Origin: an uncultured Pseudomonadales bacterium
GTDB taxonomy: Bacteria > Patescibacteriota > Microgenomatia > UBA1400 > PJMF01
NCBI GenBank assembly: GCA_964437755.1
Contig: CAYTIA010000002.1
Coordinates: 34,107-98,106 of the forward strand
Length of the DNA stretch: 64,000 bases
Reading direction: 5' to 3'
Position 1 is the stretch's first letter. Every line of letters starts with the position of its first letter. Shown here piece after piece: positions 8,139 through 59,039 of the stretch. The translations under genes and the position numbers were made by a program. The notes under the pieces were generated by a model. The model was given only the letters and a program-made list of their open reading frames with translations. It was not told the origin of the DNA and made no database searches.

Positions 8139-8280
8139 GGGCAGCAGCTGTTGATATAAAAATATAGTAGGATTATATCAACTATAACCTAGTTGAGTTG
8201 TGTAGACAATTGGAGGTCGCTGTTTTTTATAATTACTTGCGTGATACAATCATATACTCGGAGAAATTATTTTTTTATGT

Positions 8281-10923
8281 ATGAAATTAACCCAGAATTC
8301 AACCGAAAGCTCTACCTCAAAAACATTTTATAACCACTCTCAAGTCGAAACCCATTGGCAAAAAATGTGGGAAGATCACAAACTTTTTCAGGATCAAATT
8401 AACCAGTTTGTTGCCAAAGAAAATGCGGGAGAGAAACTAGATCCACTTTATTTACTGTTTGCTTTTGCTTATCCCTCTGGTTCAGGGTTACATGTGGGTC
8501 ACGTTGAAAGTAAAACGGCTCTTGATATCTTGGCTCGCTACAACCGCATGAAGGGTAAAGATGTTTTTTTCCCGGTGGGCTGGGACGCTTTTGGTTTGCC
8601 AGCAGAAAACTATGCTATTAAAACTGGTGTGCCTCCGGTTGAAACAACCAAGCAAGCAATTAACACTTTTCGCTCTCAGGTTAAGCGTCTGGGTATTAGT
8701 TACGACTGGAGCGGTGAAGTAGCTACCTGTCATCCAGAATACTACAAGTTTACTCAATGGCTGTTTTTGGAATTGTTTAAAGCAGGCTTGGCTTACAAGA
8801 AAATGGGAATGGTTAACTGGTGTCCTTCTTGTCAAACGGTTTTGGCAAATGAGCAGGTTGTTGATGGCTTGTGTGAGCGTTGTGATAGCGAAGTTGTGCA
8901 AAAAGAGTTGGAGCAGTGGTACTTTCGGATTACTGACTACAAAGATGAGCTAATCAATGGCTTGGAGCAGTTGGATTGGCCAGAACCAACTAAGCAACAA
9001 CAGCTTCACTGGATTGGTAAAAGCAAAGGGGCGGAGGTTGATTTTATGTTGGCGGATGATAGCGAAAACTCAAACAAAACTCTAACTTGTTTTACTACTC
9101 GCATTGATACTATTTTTGGGGTTAGTTTTTTAGTTATCTCTCCCGAAAAATTCAATCAACTTGAGTTGATTCAGCTTGTGGGTGATGATAAGAAAGTCCA
9201 AGTCAAAGAGTATCTAAAGCAAGCATCTAAAAAAACAGAAGAAGAGCGTCGTATTGGTGAAAAAGATAAGACGGGGGTTAATACTGGCTTGAAGGCAACC
9301 AATCCGGTTAATGGTGAACAGGTGCCATTATTTATTGCTGATTATGTTTTGCCTCATGTGGGTACTGGTGTAGTGATGGGGGTGCCGGCTCATGATGAGC
9401 GTGACTGGGCATTTGCAGTTAAGCAGAGTTTAAAGATAGTGCCAGTAGTTGCACCTAAAAATAATCAAGTGATTATTGAGGGGAAAACCGAGCAGTTTAA
9501 TCATCAACAACCTCAGGTTTGCACTAGTGAGTATGGGATTCTGATTAACTCTGAAGAGTATGACGGCTTGAGTTCAAAGGAAGCTCAACAAAAAATTGTG
9601 GTAGATTTTTCTGGAGTTATGAGACCGACTACTACCTACAAATTACGTGATTGGCTGATCTCGCGCCAGCGTTATTGGGGAGCACCAATCCCGATCATTT
9701 ATGACCCAGATGGTGAGGCTCATCCAATAAATGAAAATAATTTACCCTGGTTGTTGCCTATCGATGTTGATTTCAAGCCAACGGGTGAGTCACCACTGGT
9801 TTCAAGCAAAGAGTTTGCCAAACGAGCTAGTGAGTATGCCCTGCGCGAATATGATGAACTGATTAAGCAAAATCAAGAAAATGGTTGGGCTCAAGATGCT
9901 TCTGATTGGCGCCCAGAGTATGACACAATGGATACTTTTGTCGATTCCTCTTGGTACTATTTACGTTATCTAGATGCGCGCAACCAAGAATTATTTGCAC
10001 AAAAAGACAGACTAAATCATTTTATGCCGGTTGATATGTACTTGATTGGTCCAGAGCATATTGTGTTACATCTGCTTTATTCCCGTTTCTTTACCAAGTT
10101 TTTGCGAGATCATGGCTATCTGGATTTATCCAGTGGTGAACCCTTTACCAAGATGCGTCATCAAGGCATGATCTTAGGTCCAGACCACAAAAAGATGAGT
10201 AAGAGCAAAGGCAATGTGATTAGCCCCGATGTAGTGATCAAGAAGTATGGTGCTGACACCTTGCGAGTATATGAGATGTTTATGGGTCCACTAGAGGCGG
10301 ATAAACCTTGGGATGATAGAGCTGTTCAGGGTGTTGCCAGATTTTTGAACAAAATTTACAAATTGTTTATTTTGACCCTCGAGAGAATTGAACAAAACAA
10401 CGTTCAAAAATCAAATGTCAAGCTGGAGCGCAAACTCCATAGCACCATTAAAAAATTGGGCAATGACATTGAACAACTGAAGTTTAATACTGGTATCGCC
10501 AGTTTGATGGAGATGAGTAATGAGTGGCAAAGCTTAATTGAACAAGAAGAGTCTATTTTTTGTAAAGATGATTTGGAAAGAGTTGCTAAGTTATTAGCTC
10601 CGCTGGCTCCATTTTTGGCAGAGGAGTTGTGGGCTAAACTTGGAAATGAGTTTAGCATTCATCAACAATCTTGGTCAAAGTTTGATGAAAAGCTGGCTCA
10701 GGCGGAGACGGTAACTATTCCAGTACAAGTGAACGGTAAGTTAAGAGGAGAGTTGGAGATGGAAACAGACAAGTTGTCGGAAATGACAGCTCAGGATGTT
10801 CTTGATTTAGCCAAAGAGCTGACTTCAGTAAAAAAATGGCTAGTTGATCAAGATGGTAAACTTCTAAGTAGTCTCAAGAAGGAGATTTATATCCCTGGTA
10901 AAATTGTCAGTTTGGTGGTGTAA
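8281..10923 (+). CDS. leuS: Leucyl-tRNA synthetase
   Basis: 880 aa. Class I HIGH motif (HVGHVES), KMSKS motif (KMSKSKGN), conserved N-terminal WQKMW and anticodon-binding region. A possible alternative start ATG lies 3 nt upstream (ATGATG). Confidence 0.95.
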   Translation: MKLTQNSTESSTSKTFYNHSQVETHWQKMWEDHKLFQDQINQFVAKENAGEKLDPLYLLFAFAYPSGSGLHVGHVESKTALDILARYNRMKGKDVFFPVGWDAFGLPAENYAIKTGVPPVETTKQAINTFRSQVKRLGISYDWSGEVATCHPEYYKFTQWLFLELFKAGLAYKKMGMVNWCPSCQTVLANEQVVDGLCERCDSEVVQKELEQWYFRITDYKDELINGLEQLDWPEPTKQQQLHWIGKSKGAEVDFMLADDSENSNKTLTCFTTRIDTIFGVSFLVISPEKFNQLELIQLVGDDKKVQVKEYLKQASKKTEEERRIGEKDKTGVNTGLKATNPVNGEQVPLFIADYVLPHVGTGVVMGVPAHDERDWAFAVKQSLKIVPVVAPKNNQVIIEGKTEQFNHQQPQVCTSEYGILINSEEYDGLSSKEAQQKIVVDFSGVMRPTTTYKLRDWLISRQRYWGAPIPIIYDPDGEAHPINENNLPWLLPIDVDFKPTGESPLVSSKEFAKRASEYALREYDELIKQNQENGWAQDASDWRPEYDTMDTFVDSSWYYLRYLDARNQELFAQKDRLNHFMPVDMYLIGPEHIVLHLLYSRFFTKFLRDHGYLDLSSGEPFTKMRHQGMILGPDHKKMSKSKGNVISPDVVIKKYGADTLRVYEMFMGPLEADKPWDDRAVQGVARFLNKIYKLFILTLERIEQNNVQKSNVKLERKLHSTIKKLGNDIEQLKFNTGIASLMEMSNEWQSLIEQEESIFCKDDLERVAKLLAPLAPFLAEELWAKLGNEFSIHQQSWSKFDEKLAQAETVTIPVQVNGKLRGELEMETDKLSEMTAQDVLDLAKELTSVKKWLVDQDGKLLSSLKKEIYIPGKIVSLVV

Positions 10924-36556: not shown

Positions 36557-36591
36557 ACTTTTTGTAAATAGTTGGTAACATTGGAGCTACA

Positions 36592-36617
36592 AAAACCACC
36601 CCTTATGGGGTGGTTTT
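36592..36617. terminator. Bidirectional intrinsic terminator between convergent genes
   Basis: AAAAACCACCCC-TTAT-GGGGTGGTTTT: GC stem flanked by an A-tract and a T-tract. Confidence 0.7.
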
Positions 36618-36647
36618 AATTTCAGTTTTCTGAACTTGAAATAAATC

Positions 36648-37082
36648 TTATTTCATTTCAACTACACAACCTGCCTCTTCCAAAACTTTCTTGGCGTTCT
36701 CGGCATCTTCTTTGTTGGCTGCTTCTAAAACTTTTTGAGGAGCACTTTCAACAAATTGTTTGGCTTCACCCAAACCTAATTCTGGTTTTAATTGGCGAAC
36801 AGCCTTAATAGCACCAATCTTGTTTGAACCACCTTCTTTAAGGATAACGTCAAACTCTGTTTGCTCTTCAACTGGAGCTCCAGCGACTGCGCCAGGAGCT
36901 GCGGCCATCATAGCAGGTGCGGCTGCACTGACACCAAACTCGTCTTCTAGAGCCTTTACAAGCTCAGAAACTTCCATTAGTGAAAGTTCTTTAACTGCGT
37001 CTACAACTTTTTGTACTTTTGCAGAAAGCTTTGACTCGGCTTTTGCTTCAGTGTTGGCTTCTTTTGTTTTTTCGTCTGCCAC
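36648..37082 (-). CDS. rplL: 50S ribosomal protein L7/L12
   Basis: [21 protein letters not shown]...[21 protein letters not shown]...[13 protein letters not shown]. About 27-aa N-terminal extension. Confidence 0.95.
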
Positions 37083-37890: not shown

Positions 37891-39867
37891 ATGAAGAATA
37901 ACAAAATTAAGATAGTGACTTATCTGTTTTTTATATTGGTTTTGTTTTTAATTTTCCCTTCAAATACTTTTGCCAAATCTTACAAAATTGACAGAGTAAA
38001 GATTGAGGCAGAGTTAAGCCAAGATGGCTCGATGAGAGTTAAAGAAACTCGAACCTATGATTTTGACGGAAGTTATACTTTTGCATATCTAACTCTGAAT
38101 CGTTATCTCAACTTAGTCAAAAACCCAGGTAGAACAGAACCTTACAAATTGTCAGATTTTACGATTTGTGAAGACAGTGATTGTTATCAGTTGGTTGATG
38201 CCAACTCAGGAGAATCGTACAAAAATGACAAGAGTTTTTATATCCGTGAAGACAAAGAAGAGTATTACATAAAATGGTTTTATCGAGCCAACAATCAGAA
38301 AAAATCTTTTACCCTGAGCTATTTTGTAGAGAATGCTATTACTCAGCATAAAGATGTTGATGAGTTGTATTGGCAGTTTATTGGCGATGATTGGGAGATT
38401 CCGCATCATCAAATTGAGGCGGTGCTTAAGCTTAACTTTATCGATTCCAATGATGCTGATTTTGGCAATCAACTAAAAGCTTGGTTACATGGGCAAACTG
38501 GAGGAATGGTAAGTATTGGCAATGCCAACACTATAATTTTTGAGATTGACCGATTAAATGCAGGCAATTTTTTTGAGGGAAGAGTTTTGTTTCCTTACCA
38601 AACTTTTGCTAATACAGCTACTGGAACTTTGAATAGAGATAAAATTCTAGAGCAAGAAAAAGGCTTTATTCGTCAAACGCAGATGATGGAGTATGCATTT
38701 TTGGGATTATCAGCCTTGTTGGCTGTTTTTAATGTGGGATTACTCTATTTTATTTTTTGCGAAATCTCAAATTATGCAAGGTATGGTTTTGGTAAGCGTT
38801 TGCCAAAGATAAAAGTAGGGGTGTGGGAGCCTCCAAGCGATTTAAATCCAGCGCAAGTGATGCAGCTGATATCGGGAAGTAAACATCTTGGTCCATCGGC
38901 TTTTACCTCATTAGTTTTGTCGTTGGTTCAAGCAAAAAAAGCCAAGATTATCAGAAGTGATCAGAAAGAAGGCTTTTTGTTTAAAAAATATCGATATGGC
39001 TTGCAGAAGGTGAGTGACGAGTATCAACTTAAGGCGTACAACAACCTAGACAGAATCCAAGTTAAGGTATTTAATTTTATCTTTGAAAGAGCTGGCAAAG
39101 GAAAGAAAACTGTTTGGTTTAATGAGTTAACTAGTTATTGTCGGTTGCACAGCGTTGTCGCTCAAGCATTTTTTAAGGGTTTGTCTGAATCTGCTCAACA
39201 AATTAATTTAAATCAGGGTTATTTTGACCAAGAAGCATTTGATAAACTGAGTAATAAAAAATGGTGGATCTTTGCCATCTCGATGGTTGGTAGTTTTATT
39301 TTGGCTGGAATAATTATCACAAAAACTCAATCAAGCTCCCAGTTTGATGCTATTCATTCAGTTAATGCGATAGTAAGCTATTTTTTATTTGGGTTAAGTG
39401 TTGTGGTATTGAGTATTACCAGTACGAAAGTTTTAAAACGAACTGAGAAAGGAGCTCAAGAAGCTGCTAACTGGAAGGCGTTTAAAAAACACTTAAAGCA
39501 TTATAAAAAAACAAAGGAATACTCAATTGACTCGATAATCATTTGGGAAAAGTATTTGGTTTACGGAACATTGTTGGGTGTTTCAATGAAGGCTCTTTCG
39601 CAAATGCCGGTGAAATTTGATCAACTAGACAAGAGCACTGCTCATACTTTTTCATATTGGGGTGTAAGCAATAATTTTGGAGCGAGAGGCCTTAGCTCGA
39701 TTGATCTCTCGTCAATCTCATCTAGTTTGACTGAAGTTAGCCAAGCGATAAATTCTTTATCATCTGTAAGTAGTTCAAGTTATGGTGCTAGCGGAATGGG
39801 TTCTTCTGGAGGTTCTTCTGGAGGTGGTGGTGGAGGCGGCGGTGGTGGCGGTGGTGGAGCTGGATAG
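37891..39867 (+). CDS. DUF2207-like membrane protein with C-terminal poly-Gly tail
   Basis: 658 aa. Signal peptide, large extracytoplasmic domain, TM helices around residues 260-290 and 450-500. Terminal SGGSSGGGGGGGGGGGGGAG. Confidence 0.45.
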   Translation: MKNNKIKIVTYLFFILVLFLIFPSNTFAKSYKIDRVKIEAELSQDGSMRVKETRTYDFDGSYTFAYLTLNRYLNLVKNPGRTEPYKLSDFTICEDSDCYQLVDANSGESYKNDKSFYIREDKEEYYIKWFYRANNQKKSFTLSYFVENAITQHKDVDELYWQFIGDDWEIPHHQIEAVLKLNFIDSNDADFGNQLKAWLHGQTGGMVSIGNANTIIFEIDRLNAGNFFEGRVLFPYQTFANTATGTLNRDKILEQEKGFIRQTQMMEYAFLGLSALLAVFNVGLLYFIFCEISNYARYGFGKRLPKIKVGVWEPPSDLNPAQVMQLISGSKHLGPSAFTSLVLSLVQAKKAKIIRSDQKEGFLFKKYRYGLQKVSDEYQLKAYNNLDRIQVKVFNFIFERAGKGKKTVWFNELTSYCRLHSVVAQAFFKGLSESAQQINLNQGYFDQEAFDKLSNKKWWIFAISMVGSFILAGIIITKTQSSSQFDAIHSVNAIVSYFLFGLSVVVLSITSTKVLKRTEKGAQEAANWKAFKKHLKHYKKTKEYSIDSIIIWEKYLVYGTLLGVSMKALSQMPVKFDQLDKSTAHTFSYWGVSNNFGARGLSSIDLSSISSSLTEVSQAINSLSSVSSSSYGASGMGSSGGSSGGGGGGGGGGGGGAG

Positions 39868-41949: not shown

Positions 41950-42906
41950 TTAATATTGACTCTGTTTTTTTCTTTTTCTAGCAACTAACACAATTCCCAG
42001 CACTGCTAGCCAAATTGGACTGTAAACTACTGCCCAGATGCCTAGTTCGGCTAAACCTCTACCAGTTAATACGAGTGATCTAACTGCTTGTCTAAAGACA
42101 ACTTTGGCACTCCAGCTTTCAGCAGGGGCGTAAGGAAGAGCCATCTCATCGGTGGCCAGATAAACCGAAACCAAGCTATAGTCAGCGCTTTCGGCAAGAT
42201 AACGACGAGTACCTTCAAGAGAATCAATCTGAGTTTGCAAGTTGAGTAACTCACGCTGAACCTCAAGCATATCACTAACTGTAAAGGCGCTACCAAGCAT
42301 CTCCTCAAACTTTCTTTTGGTTGTATTGAGAACACGAAGCCTTTCTTCAATATTTGTGTACTGCTCAGTGATATCTCTGCCTGATACATTTTCAGAAACA
42401 ACCTTAACTCCGAGGTTTCTAACGGCTGCTAAAAAATTATCAAGTTTTTCACTTTGAACTCTTACGGAAATGTAGCCAGAAGCTCCCTCTTCAGGTCGAC
42501 TAATGTTTTGATTGACCATGAAGCCTTGGTGATTAACGGCTAGCTTATTAATTTGATCTAGAACTGAACCAACATCATCAACTTTTAATGACAGGGAAGT
42601 ATCGGTAATTACTTTTCTATCAGCGCTATCATAACCTGATCCGATTGATTCTTCTGACGAACTAAAATTATCAAGAAATGTTCTTGAACTGCTGGCGGGA
42701 GCTGGCATTTGAGCTGCCATGTCATAGCTAACCATCTCGTTTTGATAAACTGAATATTTTGATTGACCAACAAAAGGAGCTGAAGCTCTAGACCTTGCTA
42801 GTAAAAAAATTATCACCACTATCAAGGCTGTGGCTAATTTATTTTGTTTAATCCAGGAAAAAATGGATGGTTTTGGCATAGTTATGAAGTGGTCAATAAA
42901 AACCAT
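41950..42906 (-). CDS. DUF4349-like membrane protein (N-terminal TM, coiled coil, C-terminal TM)
   Basis: 318 aa. N-terminal TM (LATALIVVIIFLLA). Central coiled coil. C-terminal TM (GIWAVVYSPIWLAVLGIVLVARKRKK). Confidence 0.4.
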   Translation of the reverse strand: MVFIDHFITMPKPSIFSWIKQNKLATALIVVIIFLLARSRASAPFVGQSKYSVYQNEMVSYDMAAQMPAPASSSRTFLDNFSSSEESIGSGYDSADRKVITDTSLSLKVDDVGSVLDQINKLAVNHQGFMVNQNISRPEEGASGYISVRVQSEKLDNFLAAVRNLGVKVVSENVSGRDITEQYTNIEERLRVLNTTKRKFEEMLGSAFTVSDMLEVQRELLNLQTQIDSLEGTRRYLAESADYSLVSVYLATDEMALPYAPAESWSAKVVFRQAVRSLVLTGRGLAELGIWAVVYSPIWLAVLGIVLVARKRKKQSQY

Positions 42907-42947
42907 GATTAATACTTAAAAAAAGTATAACACTTTTTTAAGTTGCG

Positions 42948-43070
42948 TGTTATAATTTTGCCACCAATGCAGCAATACTTAATAACTACTACCACTACTG
43001 CCATCTCCTGACGGAGGGTGTGGTGTTGGTGCTTATTAATACTCACAACCTCCAAACAGGAGGTTTTTTT
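42948..43070 (+). promoter_or_regulatory. thrS leader: extended -10 promoter, Thr-codon leader ORF, alternative antiterminator/terminator hairpins
   Basis: TGTTATAAT extended -10 at 42948-42956. Leader ORF 42967-43011. Hairpin CTCC-tgac-GGAG 43005-43016. GGAGGgTGTG (43013-43022) can pair with CACAaCCTCC (43044-43053). Terminator AACCTCC-aaaca-GGAGGTTTTTTT 43047-43070. Confidence 0.55.
42967..43011 (+). CDS. Candidate leader peptide MQQYLITTTTTAIS (five consecutive Thr codons)
   Basis: atg cag caa tac tta ata ACT ACT ACC ACT ACT gcc atc tcc tga, read directly from the sequence. It sits 128 nt upstream of thrS. Confidence 0.45.
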   Translation: MQQYLITTTTTAIS

Positions 43071-43138
43071 GTAGCTTATTGGCGAAACTTACTCCTGCGA
43101 AAATCCAAATTATCAATTAAAATTACTTAGAACAACAT

Positions 43139-44977
43139 ATGTCAAAAAACCCAAACCCAAATTTATCAAGCAACGAACAACAACTCTTGGCTTTACGTCA
43201 CAGCGCCGAACACGTACTTACCTACGCCATGCAGAGACTCTATGGTCAAGACAGAGTTATTATGGCAATGGGGCCAGCTACTGCCGATGGTTTTTACTTT
43301 GATTTTGATACTCCGGAAGATTTTATTGTTAATGAGCAAATGCTGGGCAAGATTGAGAAAGAGATGAAACAGTTAATCAAGGCAAATTTATCTCTGATTC
43401 AAATTAAAGTCACTTTGCCAGTGGCTCGATCGGTTTTTATTAACAATCCTTATAAGCAAGAGTGGCTTGATGGCATTGAAAGTGAAGGGGAGCAAGTTAG
43501 TTTATATCTAATGGGAACCAAAGAACAGTTAGAGAATGATCAAGCATTGTTCCAGAAAGCCCAGGATGGAGAGATCTTAGATCCTTCTATTCTGCAATCA
43601 TTTGTTGATCTGTGCAAGGGTCCTCATGTGGACTCTACAGGTGAAATAAAAGCTTTTAAGTTACTCTCAATTGCCGGTGCCTATTGGCATGGAGATGAAA
43701 AAAACAAGATGCTCACTCGTATTTATGGTACGGCTTTTAATACTCAAGAGGAACTAGATCATTATCTGTGGCAAATAGAAGAAGCTAAAAAGAGAGATCA
43801 CAAAAAAATTGGTCAGAAGCTTGGCTTGTTTATGTTTGATGAGGAGTTTGGGCAAGGCTTGCCTTTGTATAAGCCAAAAGGTGCAATGTTGCGCAAACTT
43901 ATTATGGATTTTGCTTTTGAAACATATCTCAAGCGAGGTTACCAACCAGTTTCTACGCCACATATTGCCAGGCGAGGCTTATGGGAAACTTCTGGACACT
44001 GGTTTTTTTATCGCGACTCGATTTATTCTCCAATGGAGGTCGATGGTGAGCAGTATTTGCTCAAACCAATGAACTGTCCTGGTCATGTGAAGATTTATAA
44101 CAATGATCTTCATAGTTATCGCGACTTGCCAGTTCGATTGGCAGAGATGGGCACTGTCTATCGATATGAAAAATCTGGAGAGTTAAATGGAATCTTGCGT
44201 CCACGTGGATTTACACAAGATGATGCACACATAATTTGTACCCCAGATCAGCTTCCGGCCGAACTATTAGAGGTAATCGATTTAACCAAGTTTATTTATT
44301 CGAGGTTTGGTTTTAATGATCCAGTAATCAGTTTGTCTGTTCGTGATCCAGAAAATAAATCTAAGTATATGGGGGATGATGATAGTTGGTCATTAGCCGA
44401 AAAAGCACTTGAGGAGGCCTTAATTGAAAAACAGTTGCCTTATCAAAGAATTGAGGGTGAAGCGGCTTTTTATGGTCCCAAGATAGATTTTATGTTTGAG
44501 GATGCTTTGGGTCGCAAGCAACAGCTTACCACCATCCAGGTTGATTTTAATCTGCCGGAGAAATTTGAAATGTACTACATCAACGAAAAAGGCGAAAAAC
44601 AACAGCCATTTATGTTACACAGAGCCTTATTGGGTTCTCTAGAAAGATTTATGGGAGTGTTGATTGAGCACACGGCTGGCAATTTTCCTTTCTGGTTGTC
44701 ACCAGTACAGGTAAAAGTATTGCCGATTACCGATGAGCAGATTGAATACGCTAATTCAGTAGTTGATCAGTTAAGAAAAGAAAATATTAGGGTTGAGGTT
44801 GATGATCGCAGTGCCACTTTGGGTGGCAAGATTCGTGATGCTGAAAGCGAGAGAGTTCCAGTGATGTTAATAGTTGGTGCTAGAGAAGCAGAAAGAGGTG
44901 AGGTGAGCATAAGGGAGAGAGATAAGAAGGAGCAGAGAGTAGTGAGGGTGGAGCTGTTATTGAAAGATATAGTGTAA
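43139..44977 (+). CDS. thrS: Threonyl-tRNA synthetase (lacks N-terminal TGS domain)
   Basis: 612 aa. Editing-domain HxxxH (LRHSAEHVLTYA). Class II motifs, FRDSIYSPMEVDGEQYLLKPMNCPGH, HRALLGSLERFMGVLIEHTAGNFPFWLSP. Anticodon-binding domain. Confidence 0.95.
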   Translation: MSKNPNPNLSSNEQQLLALRHSAEHVLTYAMQRLYGQDRVIMAMGPATADGFYFDFDTPEDFIVNEQMLGKIEKEMKQLIKANLSLIQIKVTLPVARSVFINNPYKQEWLDGIESEGEQVSLYLMGTKEQLENDQALFQKAQDGEILDPSILQSFVDLCKGPHVDSTGEIKAFKLLSIAGAYWHGDEKNKMLTRIYGTAFNTQEELDHYLWQIEEAKKRDHKKIGQKLGLFMFDEEFGQGLPLYKPKGAMLRKLIMDFAFETYLKRGYQPVSTPHIARRGLWETSGHWFFYRDSIYSPMEVDGEQYLLKPMNCPGHVKIYNNDLHSYRDLPVRLAEMGTVYRYEKSGELNGILRPRGFTQDDAHIICTPDQLPAELLEVIDLTKFIYSRFGFNDPVISLSVRDPENKSKYMGDDDSWSLAEKALEEALIEKQLPYQRIEGEAAFYGPKIDFMFEDALGRKQQLTTIQVDFNLPEKFEMYYINEKGEKQQPFMLHRALLGSLERFMGVLIEHTAGNFPFWLSPVQVKVLPITDEQIEYANSVVDQLRKENIRVEVDDRSATLGGKIRDAESERVPVMLIVGAREAERGEVSIRERDKKEQRVVRVELLLKDIV

Positions 44978-58775: not shown

Positions 58776-58847
58776 GCCGAAGTAGCTCAGGGGTAGAGCA
58801 CCATCTTGGTAAGATGGTGGCCATGGGTTCGAATCCCATCTTCGGCT
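58776..58847 (+). tRNA. tRNA-Thr (anticodon GGT)
   Basis: Acceptor GCCGAAG/CTTCGGC, D-arm GCTC..GAGC, anticodon stem CCATC/GATGG with loop TTGGTAA, T-loop TTCGAAT, discriminator T. Confidence 0.8.
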
Positions 58848-58883
58848 CAGAAAAAAATGAAATAACTGGCTTTGGAAATTAAA

Positions 58884-58957
58884 GCCAACGTAGCTCAGCT
58901 GGCTAGAGCAGCGGTTTTGTAAACCGCAGGTCGTGAGTTCGAGTCTCACCGTTGGCT
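58884..58957 (+). tRNA. tRNA-Thr (anticodon TGT)
   Basis: Acceptor GCCAACG/CGTTGGC, D-arm GCTC AGCTGGCTA GAGC, anticodon stem GCGGT/ACCGC with loop TTTGTAA, short variable loop, T-loop TTCGAGT, discriminator T. Confidence 0.8.
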
Positions 58958-59039
58958 CATGAAATTTAACAAGAGGGATGGCTGGTTTTGTGTTATAATC
59001 CCATCCTCTCAAGAAAACAAGAAAATATAAAGGAAGAAT

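Follow-up and report, generated by a model that had tools for sequence, protein, structure and literature searches.

How might a bacterium with a very small genome adjust the expression of a single aminoacyl-tRNA synthetase to the supply of its amino acid? Patescibacteria, also known as the candidate phyla radiation (CPR), have tiny genomes; to our knowledge they have no cultured free-living representatives, and almost no gene regulation has been described in them. We analyzed a 64-kb stretch of DNA from a member of this group (contig CAYTIA010000002.1; the whole stretch is called the window below), in which thrS, the gene for threonyl-tRNA synthetase (ThrRS), is preceded by a short open reading frame (ORF) with a run of threonine codons and by a hairpin of the terminator type. 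A first-pass annotation of the sequence had proposed that this region works by ribosome-mediated attenuation of the trp, thr, and pheST type. This proposal is backed by the anatomy of the locus, by folding under constraints, and by comparative data, and we put at roughly 85% the probability that the element controls thrS as a transcription attenuator of the classical, ribosome-mediated (leader-peptide) kind, with charged tRNA-Thr as the signal sensed.

Anatomy of the thrS leader and its alternative folds

The leader ORF can be read directly from the DNA as the annotation had described it, with 14 codons, five consecutive Thr codons, and a TGA stop codon (Table 1), and the positions given at first pass were accurate to a base or two, needing small shifts only. 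A run of five Thr residues (TTTTT) is unique to this ORF across the six frames of the window, in which we also found no other pair of a mini-ORF and a terminator. The stop codon is flanked by CTCC (43005-08) and GGAG (43013-16), with tgac between them, and a G/U-rich segment, GGAGGGTGTGGTGTTGGTG, lies between the leader ORF and the terminator. The latter has a run of seven U and is one of three strong intrinsic terminators found in the window with a strict custom script; its T-run ends 68 nucleotides (nt) before the thrS ATG, close to the 70 nt estimated earlier. An assembly error is excluded as the source of the leader, since two independent assemblies (L171 and L172) share identical sequence over the 400 nt upstream of thrS; assemblies ERZ27252304 and ERZ27252295 have the same locus without any difference. 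Thr codons in the leaders of this and related loci are ACY in 88% of cases, versus 66% genome-wide.

The extended -10 box that had been noticed upstream of thrS, TGTTATAAT, belongs to the top promoter-like site (P1) of the 4 kb scanned, scoring 10/12 with the TG extension. The distance from the -10 box to the leader ATG is 10 nt, and no Shine-Dalgarno sequence precedes the leader ORF. In 15 of 20 related leaders a TGnTATAAT-type box is likewise found 7-10 nt 5' of the leader ATG. The absence of a Shine-Dalgarno sequence together with this conserved spacing suggests that the leader ORF is probably translated in a leaderless or near-leaderless manner; leaderless leader ORFs have been reported in Streptomyces (PMC8079986). 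A longer version of the ORF with a TTG start at 42943 was rejected because this start precedes the -10 box. P1 also forms part of a face-to-face pair of divergent promoter-like sites (42921-42956), in which the DUF4349 gene on the minus strand has an extended -10-like box, GTATAACAC (reverse complement TGTTATAC), opposite the -10 box of the leader. Each -10 box doubles as the -35-like ATAACA of the other, an arrangement kept in three related loci (L161, L163, and L164; Table 1).

The fold of the 181-nt leader has a z-score of -2.9. In the free RNA the structure of minimum free energy (-33.8 kcal/mol) combines a hairpin of regions 1 and 2 (1:2) with the terminator hairpin of regions 3 and 4 (3:4), the 1:2 hairpin alone contributing -23.0 kcal/mol. 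The annotation had placed the stop codon inside a small hairpin. CTCC and GGAG do flank it, but they are merely the tip of a hairpin of about 25 bp in which the Thr codons pair with GGUGUGGUGUUGGUG and the apical loop contains the stop codon; region 1 extends well beyond what had been noticed. Region 2 can also pair with region 3, and this 2:3 antiterminator is predicted at -18.9 to -20.4 kcal/mol, compared with about -10 kcal/mol for the 3:4 terminator. From the fold of the free RNA and these energies we concluded that the default state is termination.

To mimic a ribosome on the leader, we blocked the nucleotides that it would cover and refolded the RNA. When the aminoacyl site (A-site) was placed at Thr codon 2 or at the last Thr codon, the 2:3 structure formed, GGAGGGUGUG pairing with CACAACCUCC, and the terminator was gone; a ribosome placed with its A-site at the stop codon covered the 5' part of region 2, and the terminator was back. 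The complementarity of the GGAGG arm to the 5' arm of the terminator, seen at first pass, takes the form of the 2:3 antiterminator in the masked folds, and the energies agree with the expectation that this structure can compete with the terminator. Indeed, with a stalled ribosome holding region 1, the model predicts that the antiterminator would easily outcompete the terminator. Of 18 related leaders, 16 were predicted to switch likewise under masking of their Thr codons, and the terminator formed in all 18 when the stop codon was masked.

These folds suggest how the element might work. Transcription would start a few nt 5' of the leader AUG from the strong extended -10 promoter and yield a leaderless or near-leaderless message. 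When Thr-tRNA(Thr) is plentiful, a ribosome would pass the five Thr codons, reach the UGA, and cover the start of region 2; region 3 would then pair with region 4, the terminator would form, and RNA polymerase would stop at about 43070. If no ribosome were loaded, regions 1 and 2 would pair and the terminator would form again. When Thr-tRNA(Thr) is scarce, the ribosome would stall on the ACU/ACC run, holding region 1 and leaving region 2 free to pair with region 3 in a structure of about twice the stability of the terminator, so that no terminator would form and transcription would read through into thrS. A weak second promoter just 5' of thrS may give basal expression.

Table 1. Positions of features in the 64-kb window, paired segments of the antiterminator, and related thrS loci with a leader (percentages are ThrRS identity to the window)
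Feature or locus	Position	Strand	Description
Divergent intergenic region			232 nt, between the DUF4349 gene (41950-42906, minus strand) and thrS
Promoter-like site P1	42927..42956	+	-35-like ATAACA 42927-42932, 18-nt spacer, extended -10 TGTTATAAT 42948-42956
Leader ORF (thrL-like)	42967..43011	+	ATG 42967, 14 codons, MQQYLITTTTTAIS, TGA 43009-43011
Putative regulatory Thr run	42985..42999	+	5 codons, ACT ACT ACC ACT ACT
Region 1	42979..43008	+	5' strand of the 1:2 (anti-antiterminator or pause) hairpin; contains the Thr codons
Region 2	43013..43039	+	GGAGGGUGUGGUGUUGGUGCUUAUUAA; partner of region 1 or, via 43013-43030, of region 3 (antiterminator)
Region 3	43035..43053	+	antiterminator partner of region 2; its 3' part AACCUCC (43047-53) is the terminator 5' arm
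Intrinsic terminator (3:4)	43047..43070	+	AACCUCC-AAACA-GGAGGUU (43047-43065), 7-bp stem, then U-run ending at 43070
Unstructured spacer	43071..43138	+	-2.3 kcal/mol, z = +1.3; holds TAAAAT 43118-43123
thrS, threonine--tRNA ligase	43139..44977	+	612 amino acids; TIGR00418, 670.9 bits, E = 1.9e-201; presumed regulated gene
tRNA-Thr(GGU) and tRNA-Thr(UGU) genes	58776-58958		
Region 2/region 3 partners, window			GGAGGGUGUG / CACAACCUCC
Region 2/region 3 partners, L104			CGGGGUGG / CCAUCCCG
Region 2/region 3 partners, L141			GGGAUGGAG / CUCCAUCCC
Region 2/region 3 partners, L142			GCUGGCUUGG / CCAAACCAGC
Region 2/region 3 partners, L134			GGAGGGGU / ACCCCUCC
L161			93%; leader peptide MQKYSITTTTTTIS
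L163			91%; leader peptide MQKQLIITTTTTIS
L164			90%; leader peptide MKNYSITTTTTTIS
L082			81%; leader peptide MQVRSIITTTTTSS
L165			79%; leader peptide MQNQSLTTTTTTSS
L167			76%; leader peptide MRLKNQITATTTNS; protein named Ca. Woesebacteria
L175			69%; leader peptide ..VVTSTTTSS
L170			68%; leader peptide MKNNIVTTTSTSS
L085/87			57%; leader peptide ..LITTTTTTQI
L089			55%; leader peptide MKKIIVTTTTTTNS
L092			55%; Thr-run mini-ORF and terminator upstream of thrS
L104, L106, L117, L132, L134, L141, L103, L142, L101			48-51%; Thr-run mini-ORF and terminator upstream of thrS

Conservation and covariation at related thrS loci

For comparison, thrS loci were drawn from metagenomes and from contigs encoding specific ThrRS homologues. 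The closest ThrRS proteins belong to uncultured Patescibacteria, the nearest named ones being those of Microgenomates bacterium 39_7 (81%) and Ca. Woesebacteria (76%). We found the Thr-run mini-ORF, the terminator, and the antiterminator at about 22 related thrS loci, with ThrRS proteins 48-93% identical to that of the window, and the arrangement first noticed in a single sequence is therefore conserved, together with covarying hairpins. The leaders have a common design, in which a TGnTATAAT box is followed 7-10 nt on by the ATG, the codon run, the stop codon, a region 2 of the GGAGG type, and a terminator of the CCUCC/GGAGG kind. The ThrRS proteins of the clade (about 585-630 amino acids) have tRNA_SAD, core, and anticodon-binding domains; the TGS domain (PF02824) is not in the precomputed Pfam lists for the ThrRS of the clade, and one match of 808 amino acids differs.

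The choice of amino acid is specific. In a blind tally we counted ATG-initiated mini-ORFs that have at least three codons for the same amino acid within five codons, an adjoining terminator-like site, and a position no more than 400 nt 5' of thrS. Among 77 CPR-like thrS loci, this tally returned Thr at 18, each other amino acid at no more than one, and nothing on the reverse strand. Thr was returned at 0 of 77 thrS loci from diverse bacteria, a set obtained by a profile search of contigs with a ThrRS alignment, in which the matches listed all had at most 55% identity and came from many phyla.

The structures are conserved as well. A covariance model made from the nine closest leaders and the 1:2 plus 3:4 structure recovers the distant leaders. 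In the alignment fitted to this model 86.7% of the cells are paired, compared with 45-56% when the partners are slid, and double changes occur in 16 of 30 pairs; the observed values were equalled in none of 500 shuffles. The model also matched the minus strand of the window at 36590-36656, a match that we rejected as a plain terminator after an rplL-like gene. The 1:2 helices covary in related leaders, and the terminator stems covary across relatives between the types CCUCC, CCCGC, CCCUCC, CCCCCG, and CCAGC. A duplex of regions 2 and 3 can be formed in all 20 leaders, with energies of -10 to -21 kcal/mol and a mean z of -2.2 relative to shuffled region 3. The antiterminator partners change jointly between lineages (Table 1), and each time the 3' arm of the terminator fits the altered region 3. 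An alignment of 17 divergent leaders with MAFFT, analyzed with RNAalifold, recovered only four terminator pairs; this alignment being too poor, we relied on the covariance model of the close family and on duplexes computed for each sequence.

Several points weigh against the interpretation as an attenuator. The alignment used for covariation was fitted to its own model and includes one false hit among its 20 rows. The core of the antiterminator is invariant within the close family, so that covariation of the 2:3 structure comes only from distant examples paired by hand, and the z-scores of the duplex are modest for each sequence (mean -2.2). The energies of cross-pairing are only moderately apart (-14.9 kcal/mol with the own partner and -11.5 kcal/mol with that of another leader), because most lineages share the CCUCC/GGAGG core. 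Two leaders, L085 and L087, keep their predicted terminator under the simple masking model. The leader is absent at L081, whose ThrRS is 90% identical, and at L084/L168 (72%), L169 (71%), and L174 (62%), and this patchy occurrence, including the absence in so close a relative, implies that the element is dispensable. A promoter downstream of the terminator (see below) could free much of the expression of thrS from the attenuator. Finally, we infer from sequence where transcription starts, that the leader ORF is translated, and that the element responds to threonine.

Beyond the loci just named, the Paceibacterota, Saccharibacteria, and other phyla that were sampled lack the leader, and its distribution in the sequences compared is wide but patchy. 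Rfam scans, both of 20 relatives lacking the leader and of the region around thrS in the window, returned no known cis-regulator, only tRNAs. What stands 5' of thrS at individual loci varies. Clustered short GC-rich hairpin repeats (GGGGTAAACCCCTC, CCTTGGGGCATTAAACCCCAAGG, GGCAAGCCCTGG, and others), which resemble small mobile or REP-like elements, take the place of the leader in L081 (2300-2500) and separate the attenuator from thrS in L175 (400-600). L084/L168, where the leader is absent, carry three tandem A/C-rich repeats of about 62 nt (..CTCAACAGTCTACACCAAGCACTAAGTACTAAAACACCAAAC..; L168, 800-1200) directly 5' of thrS. A tRNA-Val(GAC) gene lies immediately 5' of the thrS leader or of thrS at L085, L087, L104, L148 (tRNA at about 2180-2392), and other loci. 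At L104 the leader ATG is only 8 nt past the 3' end of this tRNA, and the leader may therefore be co-transcribed with it. At L097 (2146-2430) the C-terminal end of a gene for a membrane protein of about 75 amino acids 5' of thrS has a TTTT run, after which come a region 2, a region 3, and a terminator like those of the attenuator; here the 3' end of a real gene may double as the sensor.

A possible second promoter and other explanations of the element

The sequence between the terminator and thrS bears on how far the attenuator would control the gene. A CTGTCA-N17-TA[AC]AAT motif is kept there in L161, L164, L082, and L165, and the window retains only its -10-like part, TAAAAT (43118-43123). 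This may be the -10 box of a second, basal promoter (P2) that is weak in the window, where the candidate scored below the threshold of the promoter scan and was not called. Such a promoter would limit the control of thrS by the attenuator without negating it.

The same motif could be taken to mean that the leader is an independent unit of about 105 nt, a small RNA or a micro-protein gene, which always terminates, that thrS is expressed from P2 only, and that the Thr codons have no regulatory role. Terminated attenuator RNAs can indeed act in trans in other systems (PMC6614838). We consider this explanation very unlikely, as it accounts neither for the Thr specificity of the leaders (18 of 77 loci, with no more than one for other amino acids) nor for a covarying segment that is complementary both to the Thr codons and to the terminator arm. 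Moreover, P2 is under the scan threshold in the window, and a gap of only 19-40 nt separates the terminator from the thrS start in distant relatives, too little for a separate promoter.

We give just as little credence to an action after transcription, in which translation of the leader would affect the stability of the mRNA or the translation of thrS, and the hairpin with its U-run would not be a conditional terminator. Other systems have leader peptides that act at the level of translation (ermC, cited in PMC2965389), and the thrS gene of the window lacks a clear Shine-Dalgarno sequence. However, the hairpin and its seven U make a canonical intrinsic terminator, the form of which is kept at about 20 loci, and since it ends 68 nt from the thrS start and does not overlap it, it cannot occlude the start.

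The attenuator interpretation, in which translation is the sensor, also agrees with the searches for known RNA families, in which the exclusions suggested at first pass held. The Rfam model of the T-box (RF00230) has no match in the window even at E <= 10, and Thr_leader (RF00506) has none at E <= 10 in 42000-44000. Phe_leader (RF01859) reaches 18.4 bits (E = 6.6), well short of its gathering score of 55, a low score that reflects common architecture and not membership. Nor did we find an operator of the E. coli thrS type, with stem-loops resembling the anticodon arm at the thrS start; 43071-43160 has hardly any structure (-2.3 kcal/mol, z = +1.26). Two related loci have sub-threshold T-box-like matches 5' of thrS, L088 (294-477, 26.9 bits) and L173 (389-579, 30.6 bits), compared with a gathering score of 93, and one of the two is named candidate division CPR3. 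These matches may be divergent T-boxes in place of the leader peptide, and they hint at switching between sensing systems.

Least credible of all is a direct contact of the RNA with tRNA, as in a T-box, or with ThrRS, as a mimic of the E. coli operator, with region 2 or the ACY repeats as the ligand site: region 2 is rich in GGU/UGU triplets resembling Thr anticodons, and the matches in L088 and L173 mean that tRNA sensing of thrS may exist in the radiation, but the triplets lie within helices and not in 7-nt loops, the window has neither a T-box match nor an anticodon-arm-like stem-loop beside the thrS start, and the conserved in-frame ATG, the stop codon 0-4 nt before region 2, and the conserved spacing from -10 box to ATG are features of translation.

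Possible wider occurrence and comparison with known systems

Leader-like elements are not confined to thrS. Between rplT and pheS, in a cluster thrS-infC-rpmI-rplT-pheS-pheT, L138 (5405-5498) and L142 (5449-5544) have Phe-rich mini-ORFs (MKFFTPFSFFFKN and MNLKTTQLAGFFFKN, each up to its stop codon) ahead of a region 2 of the GGGAG type and an intrinsic terminator. The PheS proteins of these clusters match TIGR00468 (E = 1e-66 and 4e-69); the gene order is that of E. coli pheST and the device is apparently the same. At L090 (224-342) a leader-like ORF with Tyr and Phe codons (MIKNLQKLYFYFYALVRRVK) and a terminator precede an ORF of 64 amino acids and a pyridoxal-phosphate aminotransferase gene, and at L098 (5511-5627) another leader-like ORF (MIQRFFMFSFMTTHMRGMLDC) and a terminator precede a gene for a menC-type enzyme of the enolase superfamily. 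The Phe and Tyr/Phe leaders have in common a codon run, a stop codon, a G-rich region 2, and a terminator. The Phe leaders before pheS suggest that the device is used more widely in the group. We see an even chance that Microgenomates-like Patescibacteria have a wider, undescribed system of classical leader-peptide attenuators, perhaps leaderless, of which the thrS leader is one case and which would control thrS (Thr), pheST (Phe), and enzymes of amino-acid salvage (Tyr/Phe).

Within the window, leuS (8281-10923) is preceded (8139-8280) by an ordinary promoter-like box, TGATACAAT, and by a Shine-Dalgarno sequence, GGAG, and we found no Leu leader peptide upstream of this gene, which argues that the attenuator is not general for the synthetase genes of this genome. 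Elsewhere in the window, 13 Gly codons in a row (..GSSGGSSGGGGGGGGGGGGGAG; 39796-39867) lie at the C-terminal end of a gene for a DUF2207 membrane protein (37891-39867).

If the wider system is real, it would be the first class of cis-regulatory RNA defined for the candidate phyla radiation, and it would be evidence that reduced, amino-acid-auxotrophic cells monitor individual charged tRNAs by tightly coupled transcription and translation. The Thr-specific attenuator by itself would establish that the charge of a single tRNA is sensed, apparently by ribosome stalling rather than by the T-box of Firmicutes. It would also establish close coupling of transcription and translation in Patescibacteria, and show that leaderless initiation can serve a regulatory leader ORF. 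In practical terms, the leader is a concrete RNA family of about 100 nt with at least 20 members here, which can be modelled, added to resources of the Rfam type, and searched for across CPR genomes, and it offers a simple reporter of amino-acid limitation in metatranscriptomes. For specialists in attenuation its value lies in the new lineage, the new and well-supported pairing of target and codons, and the apparent leaderless design.

How does the element compare with systems already known? In the T-box of thrS and thrZ in Firmicutes, a structured RNA of about 200 nt binds uncharged tRNA-Thr directly. The purpose and output would be alike, uncharged tRNA-Thr leading to antitermination and thereby to more ThrRS, but the sensor there is direct binding of tRNA, and the window has no T-box match. 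The enterobacterial thrL leader controls the biosynthesis genes thrABC and has Ile codons in addition to Thr codons. It resembles the attenuator proposed here in sensing Thr-tRNA by tandem Thr codons and in its alternative 1:2, 2:3, and 3:4 hairpins; in contrast, the target here is a synthetase gene and the Thr_leader model does not match. CPR bacteria are not generally known to have biosynthetic operons of this sort. In E. coli pheST, the pheM leader peptide with its run of cognate codons is followed by alternative antiterminator and terminator hairpins, and in both cases a synthetase operon has a short leader ORF with cognate codons ahead of such hairpins. The differences are that the codons here are for Thr and not Phe, that the gene is another one, that the leader lacks a Shine-Dalgarno sequence and is probably leaderless, and that the host belongs to the Patescibacteria and not to the Gammaproteobacteria.

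Besides the pheST attenuator of gamma-proteobacteria, attenuators of trpS and leuS have been predicted in Streptomyces (PMC1262725), and leader-peptide attenuators with His codons have been predicted before hisS paralogues in Bacilli (PMC2965389). These predictions, made by comparative genomics, concern the same class of element with other amino acids and in other phyla. The nearest counterpart is in Streptomyces lividans, where a leaderless thrL upstream of thrS has been proposed to be a Thr-dependent attenuator (Droste et al., 2021; PMC8079986). Like the present leader, itself probably leaderless, it is a short ORF upstream of thrS, but it (MKRVRPFLETTPGFVPAR) has two Thr codons only and no clear intrinsic terminator, whereas the leaders described here combine a run of 4-6 Thr codons in tandem with a canonical terminator and a covarying antiterminator. 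No relationship by descent between the two is apparent, although no test aimed at it was made. The first-pass annotation had known of no thrS attenuator of this kind. In the literature that we searched, which did not take in all journals, we found neither a leader-peptide attenuator in CPR/Patescibacteria nor a thrS leader with a tandem Thr run. Because leader attenuators of synthetase genes are known, including thrL-thrS of S. lividans, the kind itself is not new: the mechanism is a textbook one, and what is new is a well-supported case with Thr codons and thrS in this lineage.

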